NCBI GenBank assembly: GCA_014730175.1
Contig: WJIR01000031.1
Coordinates: 1 to 51,376 of the forward strand
Length of the DNA: 51,376 bases
Origin: Candidatus Zixiibacteriota bacterium
Lineage (GTDB): Bacteria; Zixibacteria; MSB-5A5; UM-FILTER-46-8
Direction: 5' to 3'
The notes beneath the pieces were generated by a model. That model was given only the letters and a program-made list of their open reading frames with translations, searched no databases and had not been told where the DNA came from. The stretch's first letter is position 1. Each line of letters starts with the position of its first letter. The position numbers and the translations under genes were made by a program. This document shows, one piece after another, positions 24,702-48,264 of the stretch.

Positions 24702-27512
24702 ATGGTTAAATCCATCGTTAATAGGCTTACTTTTATATCTTTTTTTCTCCTTTTGTGGACATGCGAATTGGTCTATGCCGAGCAAATCGGATTCGATGAT
24801 CCATGGGGTGAGTTCGGCTTTAATGTGTTAGATCAGAATTCGTCAGGAGTAGAGATTATTCACTCCCTGCAGTCGGTTAAGATTGAAGATATAGATACCG
24901 GACATGGAGTTGAAAAAGTAGTCACTGTGCCGGGTATCTTACTGCCAAACAATGCGTTCGCACCAAACCTTCCCGGTACCGGTCGCTTCCTTGCCATTCC
25001 TCGTCATTCAAAACCTACAGTGGAGATACTCGACAGCCGCTCAACTGTTATCCAGGATATAGATATCGCTCCGGCGCCGGAAATGAAGATGGTTGATGAT
25101 GATTCGGGACTGGAATTTATCAAGGATCCTGAGATTTACAGTACGGATGCATATTATCCGGCAAAACCAGTGACAATTTCGCAGCCTTCCAGGATGAGAG
25201 GAATGGATTATGTTATTCTGGGCATTACCCCATTCCGATACAATCCTGTTGACCGTAAGTTAATAATCTACCATGATTTGCGAATAAAGGTCAGTTTTAA
25301 TTCGGGTAGCGAGCACTTTGGAGAGGATAGGCTGCGTAATCGGTTTTGGGAGAATCTGTATCGCAGTCAATTTCTAAACTACTCATATTTGCCGAATTAT
25401 AGGTCTCGGAATTCAGAATTGTCCCATACTCAGGGCGGAAATTGGGAGTATGTTATTATTGTCCCTGACGATTCCAATTTTATTGCTTGTGCGGATACAT
25501 TGCGGAAATGGAGGATCAAGCAAGGAATATCTACCGGAGTGGTAACACTTTCACAAATTGGAGGAAATGACTCTACTTCCATCAAGAACTATATAAACCA
25601 TGCTTATTTCAAATGGGAGATCCCACCGGTTGCCGTATTATTGTTAGGGGACTATGCTGATCATCCCGATGATGTTGGTATATTTTCACCTCTGTGGCAT
25701 AACCTGATGATCTCGGATAATATTTATTCTGATATGAGTGGTAATGGCTTACCGGATTTAGTTATATCGCGGATCACCGCTCGTGATAGTGTGGATTTAG
25801 CCATAACCACAAACAAAATCTTAAACTATGAGCGGTTTCCTTCGATGAATGCGGACTTTTACCAGCATCCCATGATTGCCGCTGCCTGGCAGGATGAAAG
25901 GTGGTTTGTGCTATGCGGGGAAGTGGTTTATGGTTTCCTTAACAATGAATTGGGTAAGAGTCCCGTAAGAGAATATGCCATTCATTCCGGCACGCCCGAT
26001 TCAACCTGGTCAACCAATCCCAATACCTATATGATAGTGGACTATTTCGGACCGGATGGTCTCGGATATATCCCATACACGGCGGAATATCTTGACGATT
26101 GGGGGGGGAGCGCCTATAGAATCACCAACGATATCAATAACGGGGCGTTTATCGCTCAGCACTTCGACCATGGCAGCATTTACGGATGGAATTACCCTCT
26201 TTATAGAATCGAGAATCTGGTTGGACTTGAGAATGAAAGTCTGCCGTTTGTTCTATCCATCAACTGCTCATCCGGTAAATTCAATGATGTTGAAACCTGT
26301 TTTACCGAGGCTATGCACCGGATGGAACATGGCGCATTGGGACTTATAGCCGCAACCGGCACCTCGATTTCGTTTGTTAATGACACTTTTGTTTGGGGAT
26401 TTTATGATTATCTCTGGCAGTCCTTTGATCCCGGTTACGGTCATGGGGGAATCAATCATTTGTCAGCATTCGCAAACGCCTCGGCTAAATACTATCTCAA
26501 AGCCTCCGGTTGGCCTTTCAATCCGGAGCACAAAAGTGTGACTTATCATTTATATCATCATCACGGCGATGCCTTTACACGTTTGTATTCAGAAGTTCCA
26601 CAGAATTTAAGCGTTTCTCATGCTCCAGTACTGTTTCCTGGCGCAGACCATTTTGACGTATCCGCAAATCAGGGCGCTACAATCGCACTCACTGTGAAAG
26701 ACCGTATCATCGGCTTAGCTCAAGCAACAGGTGGTACTGTATCGATTCCAATAAGCCCGCAGTTCCATAGCGATACGATGATTGTTACCGTAACTCGCGA
26801 CAATTACAGGCGTTATGAGCAATCCGTACCGGTGCGCTGGCCCGAAATCGATCTTATATTCCAGCCGGTTAATCCCCCGATTTCAGTACCGCAGGGAGGT
26901 GAATTCCAGTATCATGTGACTGTGGTTAATGGCGATCTGGGCGCTGAGGTGGATGGCAGGATTGATCTGAAGTTGCCAAATGGACATATCTTCGGGCCTA
27001 TCAGCGCATTTTACGATAGGTATTATCCGCCGAACGATACGACTATAATTCTGTATGCAGTTCAGCAGATTCCGGCTGAAGCGCCCCTTGGCGATTATCT
27101 TTATCTGGGATATATCGGGCAGTTTCCCGAAGCGATTTATGATTCCACCTACTTTGAATTCACGGTTGTACCATCGGCATCACTCCATCCGAAGGCTGGC
27201 AACTGGTTTACGAATGCATGGTCGTTGATCGATGATCAATCGGCGCCCCAATATGACTACTTTCTGAGCAACTCCCCGAATCCATTCAACAACATCACAT
27301 CAATCGAGTTCGGCCTGGCTGAAGCTTCCTATACTAAGCTTGAAATATTCAATCTGTTGGGCAGGAAAATCACAACACTCGTTGATAACTATCTGAATGC
27401 CGGCAGGCATGTTGTGAATTGGCACGCAAGCCGGTATTCTTCCGGCATGTATTTCTACCGATTAACCAGCGGCGATTACATCAAATATCAAAAGATGATT
27501 TTGCTCAAATAG
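24702..27512 (+). CDS. Secreted gingipain-like cysteine peptidase (family C25) with a T9SS C-terminal sorting domain
   Basis: 936 aa with a signal peptide (FISFFLLLWTCELVYA). C25 layout with the putative catalytic His in FDHGSIYGW (codon 26169-26171) and Cys in SINCSSGKF (codon 26265-26267). The last ~80 aa (NSPNPFNNITSIEF...LEIFNLLGRKI...GMYFYRL...KMILLK) form a type-A T9SS CTD. Confidence 0.85.
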   Translation: MVKSIVNRLTFISFFLLLWTCELVYAEQIGFDDPWGEFGFNVLDQNSSGVEIIHSLQSVKIEDIDTGHGVEKVVTVPGILLPNNAFAPNLPGTGRFLAIPRHSKPTVEILDSRSTVIQDIDIAPAPEMKMVDDDSGLEFIKDPEIYSTDAYYPAKPVTISQPSRMRGMDYVILGITPFRYNPVDRKLIIYHDLRIKVSFNSGSEHFGEDRLRNRFWENLYRSQFLNYSYLPNYRSRNSELSHTQGGNWEYVIIVPDDSNFIACADTLRKWRIKQGISTGVVTLSQIGGNDSTSIKNYINHAYFKWEIPPVAVLLLGDYADHPDDVGIFSPLWHNLMISDNIYSDMSGNGLPDLVISRITARDSVDLAITTNKILNYERFPSMNADFYQHPMIAAAWQDERWFVLCGEVVYGFLNNELGKSPVREYAIHSGTPDSTWSTNPNTYMIVDYFGPDGLGYIPYTAEYLDDWGGSAYRITNDINNGAFIAQHFDHGSIYGWNYPLYRIENLVGLENESLPFVLSINCSSGKFNDVETCFTEAMHRMEHGALGLIAATGTSISFVNDTFVWGFYDYLWQSFDPGYGHGGINHLSAFANASAKYYLKASGWPFNPEHKSVTYHLYHHHGDAFTRLYSEVPQNLSVSHAPVLFPGADHFDVSANQGATIALTVKDRIIGLAQATGGTVSIPISPQFHSDTMIVTVTRDNYRRYEQSVPVRWPEIDLIFQPVNPPISVPQGGEFQYHVTVVNGDLGAEVDGRIDLKLPNGHIFGPISAFYDRYYPPNDTTIILYAVQQIPAEAPLGDYLYLGYIGQFPEAIYDSTYFEFTVVPSASLHPKAGNWFTNAWSLIDDQSAPQYDYFLSNSPNPFNNITSIEFGLAEASYTKLEIFNLLGRKITTLVDNYLNAGRHVVNWHASRYSSGMYFYRLTSGDYIKYQKMILLK

Positions 27513-27709
27513 GCGAGGATCCCGCTCCCTTTTCCTTAAAAAATGAAACCATGATTATCTACGATCTGTATATTCGAAGAGTCGCAGGCTTTTCGGTATT
27601 GCGAAATCTGATTAAATTGCTATATTTGTTTATTGAAGAGATGGATTATTATGATATCGATTCCCTTTATCTCTTCGGATGATCTAAAGTGCCACAATCG
27701 AGGTGTTTA

Positions 27710-30532
27710 ATGAAACATATTACTCTTATATCAATTCTTACTCTCCTGCTTCTTTCAAACGGCATCTCCAATGCTACAGCCTCGCCTAAGGATTTAGTCG
27801 CATTTGATCGCGCATCTATATATCAGATGAGGACGAAATGTGACGTAAACGTAATTGCAAAGCTGGATGATGTTGCTGTTGGTTTAATTGAATCGTCGGA
27901 TTTGTCTGATGCGTATGAACTTAAAGTATCTGTGAACTTGCTGGAAGCATCCGCAGATATCAGTGATTTATGGATCGACGCTGTCAAGTATCAACCATTG
28001 GGTTTTGAAGAGATTTTGTTAGAAACCGAGAGTTTTCGGTTGATCAGGATAACTAATATGCAGGCGAGGAGTTTGATTGATGCAGGTCACGAACTCGTAA
28101 AATGTATGCCCCTCGACCTTCCACCGGATAAACCGTTCGATATTCCGACTGAGATTCGAGTGAAGCAATCCATTCTATCGGAAATCGATTCACTCATGTC
28201 ACTGGTTTCCATCGACTCTATCACCACTTATCTCACCAGGCTTCAGGCCTACCACACGCGTCTTAGTTGCACCGATTCTCTCTGGAATGCGGGAGATTGG
28301 ATATTCGATAAATTTAATGCATGGAATTACGACAGCGTCGCATTTGAATTATTCCATATCGGCGGATGGAATTGTGATGCGCGCAATGTTGTTGCTACCA
28401 AGTTCGGACATGAACAGCCAGATAAGATTATAATAATGGGAGGGCATTACGATTCCTATTCAATGGACAGCGATCCATTTACCATAGCGCCTGGCGTGGA
28501 CGACAATGCAACCGGTACGGTTATGGCGATGGAGATAGCGCGTGTACTCAAAGACTACCCATTCGAAAAGACCGTACGGTTTGTTCCGTTTTCAGCGGAG
28601 GAACTGGGATTGATCGGGAGCGAATATTACGTGTGGCAGGCGTTGGAGCGTAATGAGCAAATTGAACTGATGTTTAATGCTGATATGATCGGTAATGAGC
28701 ATCAAGGGGATTGGGAGTTTTATATCAAGTGCAATTCCGGCGGCTCAGCGTACGGCGAGATAATGGAGCAGATAAGCGCGGAAGGCACACCATTGATTCC
28801 TATAGTACAAATCGGCGATTTCGGTAGTTCGGATAGCTGGCCCTTCGGTCAGGCGGGATTTCGCACCATTTGGTCTCAGGAATATGAATTTTCTCCGCAT
28901 TGGCATTCGGTGCATGATAGTATCCCGAATATTAATATTGAGTACATGACCGAAATTGTTCGCGCCAATTTGGGCACTTTGGTGATTGCGATGAGTCTGC
29001 CATCACCGGTCGCTGGTTTGCAGGCGTTAAATATGGGGAATGGTCAGTCGGTATTTCTTGAATGGGAGCCGAGCGCAGACGATGATGTAATCGGCTATGA
29101 GGTTTATGCCGGTACATCGGAGTCAAATATCGATATAGCCGATACCGCATATACCGCCGCTGATACAATTTCCTCTCTGCAGAGCGACACGACATATTAC
29201 TTTGCGGTTTCCGCTTTTACTGCGGATGGAACTCAAAGCTTGATTGACGAAATAGTCTCCTGTGTACCCCGCATACATCCGGTGACCCCTGATACTTTGA
29301 TAGTAACGCCGGAACCATGGCAGTTGAGGATTCAATGGACCGAATCGCCTGATCTTGATTTGGATCATTACAACCTGTACCGCAAAGAGGGTGAATGCGG
29401 CGGTTTCGAATTCTATCGTGAGGTAAGGGGAGAGGCTGAGTTCATCGACTCGGGACTTGAGTCGAACCTCAAATACTTTTATTACGTGACCGCGGTCGAT
29501 TCCACCGGTCTGGAAAGCGATCCGTCCAATTCGGATTACGCAAAGATAATCAGCCTGGATTCCGGGATATTGCTGGTGGATGAAACCAGGGAGATGACCG
29601 GTATGCCCAGCGATTTCGAGCAATTCGAGTTTTATATCGGTATATCGGAGGGCTATGAAATGATTCTACACGAAGTGGCTGAAAGCGGTTTGCTGAGGAT
29701 TAACGACCTCGGCGCTTTCTCCACTGTGGTTTGGTTCGATGAAGATCCTTCACATAATATGCTGGCATCAGCCGACACCGCTCTGGCAAAGTATCTCGAT
29801 TTCGGAGGGAATCTCCTGTATGTAGGATGGTGTTCAATGTATAGCTATCATAACTCCCGCCCGATTGTATTCGAGGAAGGCGAGTTTCCTTATGAATATC
29901 TCGGGATAAACCGGGTTGACAATACCGATGCAAGGGACTTCAGAGGAGGGATAGGCATGGGTGGCTGGAATGACCTGAATGTTGACACTCTCCGTTCATG
30001 GTTCAATAACTATCTCGGTTGGGTGGATATTCAGGAGTTGCAGGAGGAACCTTCCATTATCTACACCTTTAATTCGGAATCCGGCGATCCTGAATTTCAG
30101 GATAAACCGGTGGGAATCGCAATTGAAAAGGATGACTACAAAGCGATCTATACCTCATTTCCATTATACCCGATGGGTGAGGCAAGCGCCCGCGAGTTCT
30201 TCGTAAAAGCCATGAGCTATTTCGGTGAACAGACCGGCGTGGACGACGAAGAACATTCCGGGGTACTGCCGGTTTTGAAACTCCATCAAAATTACCCGAA
30301 TCCATTTAACGCCAACACGACTATAACCTTCAACCTGCCTCAGAGATCGGAGGTTAGCTTAAAGGTGTACAACATTCTGGGACAGGAGATAGCGCGTTTA
30401 ATGCATGGTAGTCTGGATGCAGGTTCACACAGCATCAACTGGGATGCCTCCGATTATTCCAGTGGAATTTATTTCTACAATTTATCGTTCAATGATGAGA
30501 ACATAACCAAACGAATGACACTGATAAAATAG
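27710..30532 (+). CDS. Secreted M28-family zinc peptidase with an FN3-like module and a T9SS C-terminal sorting domain
   Basis: The ATG at 27710 follows GAGGTG and gives the signal peptide MKHITLISILTLLLLSNGISNATA. M28 motifs: GGHYDS, GVDDNATG, FSAEELGLIGS. An FN3-like segment follows (WEPSADDDVIGYEVY...YYFAVSA). CTD: QNYPNPFNANTTITF...LKVYNILGQEI...GIYFYNL...RMTLIK. The ORF track starts at GTG 27689. Confidence 0.85.
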   Translation: MKHITLISILTLLLLSNGISNATASPKDLVAFDRASIYQMRTKCDVNVIAKLDDVAVGLIESSDLSDAYELKVSVNLLEASADISDLWIDAVKYQPLGFEEILLETESFRLIRITNMQARSLIDAGHELVKCMPLDLPPDKPFDIPTEIRVKQSILSEIDSLMSLVSIDSITTYLTRLQAYHTRLSCTDSLWNAGDWIFDKFNAWNYDSVAFELFHIGGWNCDARNVVATKFGHEQPDKIIIMGGHYDSYSMDSDPFTIAPGVDDNATGTVMAMEIARVLKDYPFEKTVRFVPFSAEELGLIGSEYYVWQALERNEQIELMFNADMIGNEHQGDWEFYIKCNSGGSAYGEIMEQISAEGTPLIPIVQIGDFGSSDSWPFGQAGFRTIWSQEYEFSPHWHSVHDSIPNINIEYMTEIVRANLGTLVIAMSLPSPVAGLQALNMGNGQSVFLEWEPSADDDVIGYEVYAGTSESNIDIADTAYTAADTISSLQSDTTYYFAVSAFTADGTQSLIDEIVSCVPRIHPVTPDTLIVTPEPWQLRIQWTESPDLDLDHYNLYRKEGECGGFEFYREVRGEAEFIDSGLESNLKYFYYVTAVDSTGLESDPSNSDYAKIISLDSGILLVDETREMTGMPSDFEQFEFYIGISEGYEMILHEVAESGLLRINDLGAFSTVVWFDEDPSHNMLASADTALAKYLDFGGNLLYVGWCSMYSYHNSRPIVFEEGEFPYEYLGINRVDNTDARDFRGGIGMGGWNDLNVDTLRSWFNNYLGWVDIQELQEEPSIIYTFNSESGDPEFQDKPVGIAIEKDDYKAIYTSFPLYPMGEASAREFFVKAMSYFGEQTGVDDEEHSGVLPVLKLHQNYPNPFNANTTITFNLPQRSEVSLKVYNILGQEIARLMHGSLDAGSHSINWDASDYSSGIYFYNLSFNDENITKRMTLIK

Positions 30533-30608
30533 GGTATCCAACACCCGGAAATAAAGATAAGCTTCGCATTAATAAATAAATATTAACCATAGCTCAGGAG
30601 AAACACCT

Positions 30609-32036
30609 ATGAAAAACAGCGTAATTTTGCTGGCGCTGGTTACCTTCCTGTTTGGCGCGATTGCGGGTAATTCGCATGCGGTACAGCGACTGGTAATTCT
30701 GGAGAATCAAACCAATCATGGTTGAGGCGGATGCCGCTATGCTGATCTGGTCTTAGATCAGCTCGCCGAAGACTATCCCGAACAACTGGCGATAGTTACC
30801 TATCACACCCACGGGCCCCTTCCTGGAGATCCATTCTATGATTACAATCCCGAAGAAAACCGGGCACGCCTTTATTTCTACCCACCCCATTATGATGGTT
30901 ACTATTATGTGCCTTATGCCTGGATAGACGGCTTTGTCAGAGCCAGTTACGAGTATAACAATTGGGAAAATCTGATGCTGGATAGATATGAGGTCGATGC
31001 TCCGCTCGAGATTCAGCTTAACGGGTGGTTCAGCGATACCGAGCGGGAAGGCAATCTCGATTTATCCATTACTGCACACGAGCCGATTACACAAACCGGA
31101 CTACGTGTGAGGATTGCGTTAACCGAGGATAGTCTTTATTACGAAGCGCCCAATGGCACAAACTGGCACAACAATACCATGCGTGACATTATCCCGGATA
31201 CGCTCGGTATTTTCCTGGAGATATCTCAAGGGCAGACCGTGGAGCTTTCGCAGCCGTTCGAATGCCCGGAACCTTTGGTTATCGAGCAATGCGAGTTAGT
31301 GGCTTGGGTTCAAGCTGATTACAGCGACCTGGAGATATTGCAGACTGCGAAAGTCAGTTTGACCGATCTCGCGCAGTGCGTTTGTGATGTGGGCATGATT
31401 CCGGATGAGGATCCCGTTATCGTCCCCAGAGGCGGGAACTTCGGGGTAACAGGCACCATCAGCAATCCATGCGATGAGTTTATGACCACCGACGTCTGGT
31501 ATGGTGTTCATGCCATGGATGAATTCTTCGAGCTTGGTAATATAAATAACATACCGATTAATCCGGGACAATTCCTACAGGGACATTTTTATCAGCATGT
31601 ATCCATACATGCGCCGACGGGTGAATTTGAATACATGGCTTATTGCGGCGACAGTCCGGATGTGAAGAATGATTCATTTTCTTTCATGGTAACCGTCACG
31701 AACAATCGCATTTCCGGTGGCGCCGAGGAATGGCATACCGAAGGCAGCTTCCTAAACCAAACGGTTTTGCCGGAAGAAACCGGTTCATTGGAAGTTTATC
31801 CCAATCCCTTCAACGCGTTTTCTACCATAAACTTCGATTTAAAGGAGGCAACCAGTCTGAAGCTTGACATCTATAATATCGCAGGCCGCAAAGTTGTTAC
31901 ACTTGCCGACGGTGAGTTTGAGAGAGGTGAGTATTCGTTGAGTTGGGATGCATCGGAATATCCCAGCGGAGTCTATTTTATCAAGTTAGCGGCAGGCAAT
32001 TATATCACCACAAAACGGATGACGCTTTTGAAATAA
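30609..32036 (+). CDS. Thioredoxin-fold/Omp28-like T9SS cargo protein that requires read-through of an in-frame TGA (candidate selenocysteine, U39)
   Basis: The ATG at 30609 follows AGGAGA and opens a signal peptide. A single in-frame TGA at 30723-30725 lies in the motif HG-U-GG-C. The frame then stays open into the called ORF 30909..32036. Omp28-like features are present (WHNNTMRD). T9SS CTD at the C-terminus: VYPNPFNAFSTINF...LDIYNIAGRKV...GVYFIKL...RMTLLK. Confidence 0.6.
30726..30767 (+). promoter_or_regulatory. SECIS-like stem-loop immediately 3' of the in-frame TGA
   Basis: Lower helix GGCG 30726-30729 / CGCC 30764-30767. Upper helix is a perfect 8 bp, GCTGATCT 30741-30748 / AGATCAGC 30755-30762. 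Apical loop GGTCTT 30749-30754 contains the GU step seen in the E. coli fdhF SECIS loop (GGUC). Confidence 0.55.
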
Positions 32037-45867: not shown

Positions 45868-48264
45868 CTATTTTAACAATGTCATACGCTTCGTGAGCGC
45901 TCTATCGCCAACAACTAACTTATAGAAATATATTCCGCTGGCATATTCGGAGGCGCTCCAGATAACGGTATGATCACCGGCATTTAGCTGCGAGTTAATT
46001 AGAATGTCAATCTTCTGACCCAATAGGTTATAAATTTCAAGTCTGGCAATTGAGGTCTCAGGGATGCTAATTTCAAATCTGAAACATGCATTGGATGGAT
46101 TAGGCGTGCATGTCACCTCAAAATTCTCCGAGGGTTTATCCGGGAGATCTAAGGGACTTGGACTACCGATCAGGATGAGGGCTGTATCCTCCACTACATG
46201 AAGTCCTCTGTCTTCGATAAGACAGGTAACGGTATCGATCACGTTGTTTTCACCATTATACTCAGGTGCCGTATAGATCACTGCGGGACTATGTAAACTA
46301 TCGATGGTCCCATAAACCGTTTGCCATGAAATGGTTAAGCTATCCCCCCGACCGGAATGCAAATCCACATCGAAAATGTCCAAGATAATGGAATCAGACT
46401 CGCACCAATCCAAGTATTCCGGATAGGAGTCAAAATGTGCGTAAGGTTGATACCCCCAATCCCAGGAGAACTTAACTTCATCGATGTATGCTTTGAAAAC
46501 TCCGGTCTCAGCACTGCTGCCATCATCATACCCGATTAATAGTTTGGAAATATCTTTGCCGTAAATCGGTTCCAGGTCAAAGGCATAAAACCTCCATTCA
46601 CCGGAAGTAACCGTAAGATTCTCTGGCCCGATCTGTTCATCGAATTGGCTGTATATCGGAAGATCATGCAGCCAGGCGCCTGCTTTTGTGATACCATCCA
46701 AACAGATATGACCCAAGTCACCGGGAGATTCTTCTACATGGATTATAAACGAAAGAAACCGCCTTGAAGAGTTTATTGGTATGTCATCGTCCATAAGCGT
46801 GCAGTAAACCCGGCTATCCGCTAATGGGGAAACATCTTCACCCTTTATACCGTAGACGCGCTTATTCCTTATATACTCACTGATCCAGGATACCCTAACA
46901 GGCGTATGCTTGACTGGAATTATACGCGCTACCACATCCTGACAATTTGCAATGTCAACAACGGTATTCTGTAGCGCGCGGGTATCCATGAGTTCAAATC
47001 CTGTATATGAAAATGCAGGTTTATAGGAAGGATTGACTGCAATCTGCATCCCGGGATCACCATAGAGATTAAACTGGAAAGCGCCTTGCCAATTGTAGGC
47101 GTAAAATTTCGGAATATAATACAGCCGACCCAAATTCATCGCCTCTCTTTCGAAGAACGTTTTATAAAAATGGGTGGTTAGAGTGCGGTTGTCGATTTGA
47201 GCGGTAGCGGAGGAAGGAGATATCCAGGCAATCGCTCCGGCGTTTTCCGTAAACAGGAAATTCTCGAAGTGGCTTTCGAATTCATGTGTAAGGAACGGAT
47301 CGAACCTGCCCAGGTCGCAACTGGCGGCATACACTACCGGGTATTTCAGGTAATTGTTCAGGTCGGTATCGGCATCGAAGTAGTCGCTTTCGATGTAGTA
47401 GCAGAAGTTTCGCTGAGTAGCTCCTGTGCCCAAAGCGCTCATAATCAATTGACCATCGTTGAGGAAAAGCGCTAATGAATCGCTTCTAAGCTGCTTGTTT
47501 TCATCTCCCGGACAAGCCGTATAATAAAGTATCTTGGATTCCCAATCCTGCGGTACATACATATCTATAACATCCTCTGAGGTAATACGAACACCACCGG
47601 GGCAAGGGGTTGATGGGCATGGAGGTTCTCTCATTTTATCGCCAGCTACCACGAGTATATTGTCCTTCCATGCTGCGGGATCAGTGTTGGCTTCGTAATC
47701 AAGTAGTTTGTTTATAAATATGGATACCTGATCTGTGTTCTTAGCGGGAATCCTTCCGATATACAGATCGGGAAGGTATGGAGTATATGCCTCGATCGGC
47801 TCGTCATCATCCACCCTCGCGTACACATCATCCATAGCGATCATTCTCGCTGTATGATCATACTCATTTGCCCATTCCCAGTAGGAGGGTATATAATTAT
47901 TGGTCGCCGAGTTAACTATATCCCAATTGAGCGTATCATCGCAAGCGTTACCAATGAGTAGGACGTGCAGCAGTTGATAGGAATTATATGCCGGATTATA
48001 ATGACGTTTTATTCCATCCTTAATATCATAAAACGTTAGTCCGTCGTTTACCTCTTGTATATATACGGAATATCCCTGCTGAGTGCGCCAGGAAGCCAGA
48101 TCGTCCACCGCTTGGCACATCAGATCCTCATTCACTATTATCAGGTACTCGCTCTTATAATCGGTGGGGCCCTGATCCGCTAATACAAAACTGGAAAGCG
48201 CAAATACAAAGCCAATTATCGACAGCCAGGTTATAGAAGCTATCGTTTTCTTGGAAATTTTCAT
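45868..48264 (-). CDS. Secreted C25 (gingipain)-like protein with a T9SS CTD; the catalytic His appears substituted
   Basis: 798 aa with signal peptide MKISKKTIASITWLSIIGFVFALSSFVLA after GAGGTG. C25-like N-terminal layout. The Cys motif YAASCDLGRF is retained, but the segment aligning to FDHGS reads LGTGA. CTD: TPNPSNACFRFEI...LEIYNLLGQKI...GIYFYKL...RMTLLK. Confidence 0.8.
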   Translation of the reverse strand: MKISKKTIASITWLSIIGFVFALSSFVLADQGPTDYKSEYLIIVNEDLMCQAVDDLASWRTQQGYSVYIQEVNDGLTFYDIKDGIKRHYNPAYNSYQLLHVLLIGNACDDTLNWDIVNSATNNYIPSYWEWANEYDHTARMIAMDDVYARVDDDEPIEAYTPYLPDLYIGRIPAKNTDQVSIFINKLLDYEANTDPAAWKDNILVVAGDKMREPPCPSTPCPGGVRITSEDVIDMYVPQDWESKILYYTACPGDENKQLRSDSLALFLNDGQLIMSALGTGATQRNFCYYIESDYFDADTDLNNYLKYPVVYAASCDLGRFDPFLTHEFESHFENFLFTENAGAIAWISPSSATAQIDNRTLTTHFYKTFFEREAMNLGRLYYIPKFYAYNWQGAFQFNLYGDPGMQIAVNPSYKPAFSYTGFELMDTRALQNTVVDIANCQDVVARIIPVKHTPVRVSWISEYIRNKRVYGIKGEDVSPLADSRVYCTLMDDDIPINSSRRFLSFIIHVEESPGDLGHICLDGITKAGAWLHDLPIYSQFDEQIGPENLTVTSGEWRFYAFDLEPIYGKDISKLLIGYDDGSSAETGVFKAYIDEVKFSWDWGYQPYAHFDSYPEYLDWCESDSIILDIFDVDLHSGRGDSLTISWQTVYGTIDSLHSPAVIYTAPEYNGENNVIDTVTCLIEDRGLHVVEDTALILIGSPSPLDLPDKPSENFEVTCTPNPSNACFRFEISIPETSIARLEIYNLLGQKIDILINSQLNAGDHTVIWSASEYASGIYFYKLVVGDRALTKRMTLLK

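Follow-up and report, generated by a model that had tools for sequence, protein, structure and literature searches.

A predicted secreted selenoprotein of the Omp28-related thioredoxin fold and its conserved hairpin in Zixibacteria

Does the in-frame TGA at positions 30723-30725 of contig WJIR01000031.1 (Candidatus Zixiibacteriota bacterium, GenBank assembly GCA_014730175.1) end a short peptide, or does it encode selenocysteine (Sec, U) within a longer, exported protein? The window analyzed here is the whole 51,376-nucleotide (nt) stretch, and at this place the list of its open reading frames (ORFs) calls just 30909..32036, from a GTG start that has no Shine-Dalgarno sequence ahead of it. Followed upstream, the same frame reaches an ATG at 30609, runs for 38 codons to the single in-frame TGA and is otherwise open in conceptual translation as far as the stop TAA at 32034-32036. 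Read in this way, 30609-32036 on the + strand is one gene of 475 codons including one Sec codon, and the local context of the TGA is HG-TGA-GGC-GGA-TGC, corresponding to U-G-G-C. From the comparison of sequences set out below, we conclude that this stretch is very probably a single gene for a predicted secreted selenoprotein, whose UGA codon would be translated as Sec at residue 39.

The upstream start has its own signals. A Shine-Dalgarno-like AGGAGA (30595..30600, + strand), read from the sequence, lies 8 nt before the ATG, and the relatives carry GGAGG in the same place. The encoded N-terminal leader, MKNSVILLALVTFLFGAIAGNSHA/VQ, is hydrophobic and presents by eye the classic pattern of a signal peptide (amino acids 1-24, 30609..30680), with likely cleavage at SHA/VQ. 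In all 40 relatives described below, the leader ends just before a conserved Q/E-R-hydrophobic-V motif, which is QRLV in the window gene. The ribosome-binding site, the ATG, the hydrophobic N-terminus, the 38 codons to the TGA and the open frame after it had all been listed in a preliminary description of the locus as a candidate selenoprotein gene, and all were present as described. A scan for promoters and terminators gave nothing exceeding shuffled expectation.

If the TGA encodes Sec, homologues would be expected to carry Cys or Sec in the same column, as the preliminary description had pointed out. A profile search reached 1253 Omp28-related proteins, and 85 sequences were aligned. The TGA column is Cys in 73 of the 76 occupied rows, where it forms the first Cys of a CxxC motif; the second Cys position of the motif is Cys in 74 rows, and P102 is invariant (85/85 sequences). 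The close full-length orthologues P0001, P0004 and P0007 all have CxxC, with Cys at the TGA column. The protein search gave 15 close relatives, and most of them apart from these three orthologues had been called as N-terminally truncated proteins, one of which is named by NCBI 'T9SS type A sorting domain-containing protein' (T9SS, type IX secretion system). Examination of the DNA of three truncated relatives revealed a mini-ORF of 35-38 amino acids called directly upstream in each (L001:212-328, L002:2821-2937 and L003:2836-2943), and when the frame was read on between the two calls, TGA again occupied the Sec column (TS-U-SGC, TG-U-GGC and TS-U-PSC). The N-terminal 100 amino acids are present and conserved in homologues, and the truncated calls all hide an upstream in-frame TGA. 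In a further relative, P0017, the Sec column is occupied by G.

Elsewhere in the window TGA behaves as an ordinary stop, in agreement with the preliminary description: it ends 7 of the 46 long ORFs, and the codon is therefore not reassigned genome-wide. A scan of the window for frames split by a single TGA found a redox context at 30723 only. Beyond the window, 40 distinct genes with TGA-N6-TGY at this column were identified in Zixibacteria-type metagenome-assembled genomes (MAGs), by scans that started from the protein, in species genomes (the 80 best matches being taken) and in metagenomes, together with a DNA scan using the 18-nt core of the hairpin described below. All 40 encode an N-terminal hydrophobic leader, and coding conservation is found in the same frame on both sides of the TGA. 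An assembly error, which had been raised as a possible source of the TGA, is excluded by this recurrence in 40 distinct genes from about 30 contigs.

A hairpin lies directly 3' of the TGA, at nt 19-40 with the U of UGA as nt 1 (30741..30762, + strand), and is the candidate for a selenocysteine insertion sequence (SECIS). Its helix, 30741-30748 paired with 30755-30762, is a perfect 8 base pairs (bp) around GGTCTT, drawn as GCUGAUCU-GGUCUU-AGAUCAGC with a hexaloop. Alternatively, in the RNAfold structure, a closing G.U pair lengthens the stem to 9 bp (nt 19-27 / 32-40) and leaves a GUCU loop, CUGAUCUG-GUCU-UAGAUCAG. The 56-nt fold has a free energy of -21.4 kcal/mol, with z = -1.97 versus shuffles; the significance of the hairpin comes from the comparison across relatives and not from the single-sequence fold.

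This comparison is informative at several levels. The same hairpin stands at the same distance behind an in-frame TGA in all 40 genes, with 96.9% of cells paired, versus 16-34% after a shift of the 3' partner by 1-3 columns. Compensatory changes affect pair 20-39 (C-G to U-A), pair 23-36 (A-U to G-C, with a G.U intermediate) and pair 26-33 (U-A to A-U), while one further pair passes from C-G to U.G; the observed covariation score was matched by 0 of 500 shuffles. Some of these compensatory changes replace a residue of the protein (D to G with GAU to GAC; L to Q with UUA to CUU), which argues that selection on the RNA prevails over selection on the peptide. The seven codons at +6 to +12 from the TGA (GCU GAU CUG GUC UUA GAU CAG) show 1-3 variants each in 19 genes. 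Outside the helix, invariant residues vary synonymously in the same genes, both upstream of the TGA (R with 6 codons, V with 4, T with 4, E with both) and downstream of it (C, Y and H, each with both codons). G27, G28, U29, C30 and U32 are invariant in the 40 sequences, and loop position 31 varies.

The hairpin has decayed in the Cys orthologues at L004, L019 and L020 despite a similar peptide: at L004 two substitutions break both the helix and the GGUC, and no helix is found at L019 and L020. The L004 copy (L004:3115-3180), which belongs to the closest Cys orthologue, P0001, is recognizable but broken, GCUAAUCUGGUUUUAGAUCAGC, and looks like the trace of a recent Sec-to-Cys replacement. Distant Sec members have other hairpin sequences in the same place, with GU in the loop: CUUGACA-GUGU-UGUCAAG at L021:1606-1660, and CUCGACC-AGUU-GGUCGAG at L018:1606-1653 and L131:5070-5117. 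Since these hairpin sequences are unrelated and occupy one position, structure rather than sequence appears to be kept across subfamilies. Codon conservation, compensatory changes and decay in the Cys forms together strongly support the view that selection maintains the hairpin as an RNA structure in connection with the TGA.

The link with the TGA was also seen when the hairpin was used as a probe. The 18-nt core occurs once in the window and gave 32 matches in 185,579 species genomes. The TGA lies exactly 20 nt upstream in 27 of them, within a conserved E-x-x-T-x-x-x-U-x-x-C context, and these 27 matches are all in MAGs labeled Zixibacteria, Ignavibacteria or uncultured bacterium. The remaining 5, in Amphibacillus, Sulfobacillus, Rifleibacterium, Patescibacteria and an actinomycete, are without TGA or context.

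The hairpin had been likened to the SECIS of Escherichia coli fdhF, and the likeness holds in its main feature. Both elements lie directly 3' of the UGA in the coding region and share the GGUCU apex; the fdhF SECIS sequence was confirmed in 5419 of 5426 E. coli genomes. In E. coli, SelB contacts the G and the U of this loop. In contrast to fdhF, which has a bulged U, the window stem is a perfect 8-9 bp, its loop is GUCU on a closing G.U pair or the hexaloop, depending on how it is drawn, and GGUC begins at nt 27 instead of nt 22. Bacterial SECIS models of the bSECISearch type consist of a stem-loop just 3' of the UGA, with a G (GU) in an apical loop about 16-37 nt from the UGA. The window hairpin, whose loop begins at nt 27-28, fits this description.

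The preliminary description had proposed a two-tier hairpin, and its upper tier, the perfect 8-bp helix around GGTCTT, is borne out by covariation in the 40 genes. The lower tier (GGCG 30726-30729 / CGCC 30764-30767) did not hold up as part of the SECIS: it forms in the 56-nt fold but is absent in a 66-nt fold, and its columns are not conserved in relatives. It is a window-only feature and probably lies outside the element.

Other explanations of the TGA and its hairpin have to be weighed. The one that survives best is that the UGA is read through without selenium, the hairpin stimulating near-cognate decoding (Trp, Cys or Arg) or another recoding event, to give a sulfur- or Trp-containing product. 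In other systems, read-through can be promoted by RNA structures located 3' of a stop codon, and no sel machinery was found in the window or in the fetched loci, both of which favor this explanation. We nevertheless consider it improbable, because the recoded position is the catalytic Cys column, where Sec/Cys exchange is a known pattern (PMC9312934), because the invariant GGUC apex matches the fdhF SECIS, and because lineages that replaced the TGA took TGY (Cys) and then lost the hairpin.

A second possibility is that the hairpin has nothing to do with recoding and is kept for the peptide ADLVLDQL, or as an element of mRNA stability or regulation, the TGA being coincidental. The partial conservation of DLVLDQL in the Cys orthologues would agree with selection on the peptide; yet these orthologues keep a similar peptide and not the helix, synonymous sites are frozen inside the helix only, and helix changes are compensatory even when the amino acid changes. 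Together with the presence of the TGA with the helix in 27/27 family matches and its absence in the 5 unrelated chance matches, this makes such a role very unlikely. As for a broken gene, in which translation would end at 30725 and leave a product from GTG 30909 only, or a pseudogene, mechanical and public gene calls do give a 35-38-amino-acid mini-ORF plus a truncated protein, but we hold it hardly credible since 40 genes share the break, with amino acids conserved and synonymous sites free to change on either side of it, and since a start at 30909, itself devoid of a Shine-Dalgarno sequence, would cost the protein its signal peptide, its strand 1 and helix 1 and the greater part of its thioredoxin fold.

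Several observations weigh against Sec insertion itself. No selA, selB, selD or tRNA-Sec gene was found in the window (20 ORFs scanned) or in the fetched loci (about 40), so that the source genome is here assumed to encode the machinery, and our literature search found no link of Zixibacteria to Sec machinery. The helix is perfect, without the bulged U seen in E. coli, its apex is displaced by 5 nt away from the UGA in comparison with fdhF, and the single-sequence fold is only mildly unusual. Some close relatives have lost one of the redox residues (ExxC in P0005 and P0006, CxxS in P0016 and P0018), so that redox catalysis need not be common to the whole family, and oxidoreductases of the dithiol or selenol-thiol type cannot account for all of its members. 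Finally, Rfam returned nothing relevant, whether in a gathering search of the whole window or in a permissive search of 30650-30850. We read this last result as uninformative, because, to our knowledge, Rfam has no general family for bacterial SECIS elements.

Under Sec insertion, which we prefer, the hairpin 30741-30762 would act as a bacterial SECIS, recruiting SelB and Sec-tRNA(Sec) to a ribosome paused at UGA 30723, and Sec would be inserted as residue 39 instead of termination, as the comparative evidence suggests. The predicted product would comprise, in order, a Sec-type signal peptide, a thioredoxin-fold domain with U39-G-G-C42, an Omp28 β-sandwich, a 144-amino-acid insert and a T9SS C-terminal domain. 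The Sec pathway would carry it across the inner membrane and the type IX secretion system across the outer one, after which it would be set free or attached to the cell surface, on the model of HBP35 from Porphyromonas gingivalis. In the active site, the selenolate may serve as the attacking nucleophile and C42 as the resolving residue, consistent with a selenol/thiol-disulfide oxidoreductase of this fold and motif.

A structural view of the protein was obtained from the AlphaFold model of P0001, a Cys orthologue 61% identical to the window protein (85-row alignment; mean predicted local distance difference test score, pLDDT, 90.4). The model consists of a thioredoxin fold, a β-sandwich and a T9SS C-terminal domain. 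Its first domain has the succession β-α-β-α-β-β-α (β29-35, helix 40-55, β60-66, helices 75-88, β103-106, β110-112 and helix 116-127), with the CxxC (39-42) at the N-terminus of helix 40-55 and Pro102 before β103-106; the β-sandwich spans 133-250 and the T9SS domain 268-356. Transferred to the window gene, whose orthologues are collinear over residues 1-251, the thioredoxin-fold domain would occupy approximately amino acids 25-130 (30681..30998), with U39-G-G-C42 (codons 30723-30734) opening helix 1 and the invariant P102 before strand 3. The β-sandwich half of the Omp28 domain, with the invariant E173, H187 and R192 in the alignment, would follow at approximately amino acids 131-251 (30999..31361).

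The domain assignments proposed in the preliminary description, an Omp28-like fold and a C-terminal T9SS sorting domain, are both backed by curated profiles. With Cys written at the TGA, Pfam PF11551 (Omp28) matches amino acids 100-250 with 41.5 bits against a gathering threshold of 34.9. The T9SS type A sorting domain, at amino acids 396-471 plus the last residues (31794..32033), scores above both curated cutoffs (PF18962, 47.8 bits for 27; TIGR04183, 45.5 bits for 23). Between the two lies a Cys-containing insert of about 144 amino acids (252-395, 31362..31793), which has no Pfam match and no similarity to the longer relatives P0016 and P0017; it is unique to the window copy, the other relatives measuring 341-361 amino acids without it.

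A Foldseek search against the PDB gave as its top match HBP35 from P. gingivalis (PDB 5Y1A; E = 7e-15, template modeling scores 0.56/0.63), whereas a PDB sequence search gave no match. HBP35, a T9SS cargo, has the same three-part architecture, a thioredoxin-like domain with CxxC, a β-sandwich and a T9SS domain, but carries Cys and not Sec, is only about 13% identical in sequence and binds hemin through its C-terminal part. Recombinant HBP35 reduces insulin disulfides faster than E. coli thioredoxin, the C48S/C51S mutant is inactive, and one modified form is found on the cell surface (PMC2907840). A further report describes HBP35 as secreted by the T9SS, in dependence on the Por/T9SS system (PMC3120885). 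From the thioredoxin fold and the motif in the model, the window protein is thus most likely a surface or secreted selenol/thiol-disulfide oxidoreductase.

Is this a new kind of selenoprotein? A curated hidden Markov model of NCBIfam, NF045500 ('Omp28-related selenoprotein'), embodies the same concept, an Omp28-type thioredoxin-like protein with Sec. Among the NCBIfam models it matches the window protein best (E = 8.5e-16, residues 26-268 versus profile positions 38-285), the plain Omp28 lipoprotein model coming after it, and it ranks first or second for the relatives tested. The scores nonetheless lie below its cutoff of 200 bits: 58.3 bits for the window protein, 41-77 for Sec-bearing relatives, 35.2 for P0028 and no match for P0017, no relative tested exceeding 77 bits. 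The end of the profile, about 90 positions, finds no counterpart in the T9SS domain. At 41-77 bits for a 200-bit cutoff the clade goes unannotated, which explains the truncated public annotations. The name of the model is absent among the 120 matches listed in the Omp28-related profile search, and we found no publication on it. The Omp28-related thioredoxin-fold UxxC protein belongs to a known kind of selenoprotein, already recognized by curators, of which this clade is a separate branch not captured by NF045500.

Our literature search found no mention of an Omp28 selenoprotein. The preliminary description had stressed that exported selenoproteins are uncommon in bacteria; the window protein is less exceptional in this respect than implied, given the DsbA-, DsbG- and MtrB/PioB-type selenoprotein families, which we take to be exported and to bear signal peptides. 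These three types are listed in a 2022 review whose table holds 87 prokaryotic selenoprotein families and no Omp28 entry, and which makes no mention of secretion or signal peptides (PMC9312934). DsbA-like, DsbG-like and thiol:disulfide interchange proteins, all entries of the same table, share with the window protein a UxxC in a thioredoxin fold. These families, which we likewise take to be exported, differ in being periplasmic and in their Pfam domains; the table gives no report of many tandem paralogues for them (PMC9312934).

Such paralogues are a feature of the present family, with up to five Sec copies seen per genome. The closed Zixibacteria genome CP070813.1 carries four tandem copies and a fifth elsewhere (L025, L035), and three copies each were found in L006/L041, L007/L034 and L015. 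Every 3' end that was read encodes a C-terminal sorting domain, of the T9SS type in 19 and apparently a dockerin-like tail in 2. The two latter paralogues (L022:2360-3553 and L046:4851-6059) end in Cys-containing tails, ...GGP...C.DCPP and ...GGPG...CPSCPP, with no T9SS domain, and the neighboring gene in L022 has a Dockerin_1 match; the look of these tails suggests alternative modes of surface attachment.

One metagenome contig (Ga0214473_10012582) encodes a member with two in-frame TGAs, TGA CCC GGC TGA (L018:1606-1617), corresponding to U-P-G-U. The gene is otherwise complete, with 342 amino acids, a leader and a T9SS domain, and its UxxU is a candidate diselenide motif. When its own 18-nt hairpin was used as a probe, mostly chance matches in GC-rich genomes were obtained, with one Zixibacteria match, L131. 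This sole relative found to share the L018 hairpin has U-P-T-C, a UxxC and not a UxxU.

Regarding the source of these genes, the SecY protein of the window is 72% identical to that of the Zixibacteria MAG SCS6bin.4, among the matches listed, and this MAG carries at least 3 of the TGA-bearing Omp28 genes. The best SecY match among those listed (75%) is labeled Acidobacteriota. Several MAGs with Zixibacteria-type genes are labeled 'uncultured Ignavibacteria' (L007/L034, CAZFSN01; L023, L024, L027, L031 and L039), and L048 (DATKYL01) is likewise among the bins with doubtful taxonomic labels. The labels of these bins look unreliable.

In the window, the selenoprotein gene comes immediately after a C25 gingipain-like peptidase gene (24702-27512) and an M28 peptidase gene with an fn3 domain (27689-30532), and a second C25 gingipain-like gene lies at 45868-48264. 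These three genes (C25 twice, M28 once) also carry T9SS sorting domains. Another arrangement recurs elsewhere, where an AhpC/TSA-redoxin gene (WCxxC) is followed by a DUF6029 β-barrel gene and then by the Sec-Omp28 gene (L025, L003); DUF6029 alone stands ahead of Sec-Omp28 in L026 and L002, where upstream sequence is available. In L032, a conserved barrel C-terminus (...FSRF) lies just upstream, the barrel being assigned from this C-terminus alone. The clusters run from DUF6029 to one to four tandem Sec-Omp28/T9SS genes (L025:1-6903 of CP070813.1, L026:1-3555, L032:1-1651, L003:652-3900 and L002:1-3885), and the window copy lies outside any such cluster. The recurring order of redoxin, DUF6029 and Sec-Omp28 suggests, without proving, a functional module.

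A broader reading of this module, which we put forward as speculative and rather unlikely, makes the Sec-Omp28 proteins the outermost members of a dedicated redox system of Zixibacteria, based on selenium and working outside the cell. A periplasmic TlpA-like redoxin and the DUF6029 outer-membrane barrel, whose genes stand just ahead of one to four tandem Sec-Omp28 genes in several genomes, would pass reducing power to T9SS-anchored selenol oxidoreductases, which might use protein disulfides, polysulfide, or metal or metalloid species as substrates outside the cell. The UxxU of L018 may in such a system be a diselenide centre.

For annotation, the split calls of a mini-ORF and a truncated protein make the redox domain invisible in databases, and the family is routinely mis-annotated. 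Its nearly invariant SECIS provides an 18-nt probe that recovered members of the family with no false positives among the TGA-bearing matches. Recognition of the family would add to the review's list of 87 and would give one candidate-phylum genome at least 5 selenoproteins. The finding is of moderate interest, owing to the T9SS surface destination, the strong paralogue expansion in Zixibacteria and the unusually invariant SECIS. Sec forms, Cys forms with decayed hairpins and ExxC/CxxS forms coexist in the family, offering a natural series for the study of Sec/Cys exchange. On the reading preferred here, the family would place Sec, in a way that we did not find reported in our literature search, on the T9SS route to the cell surface.

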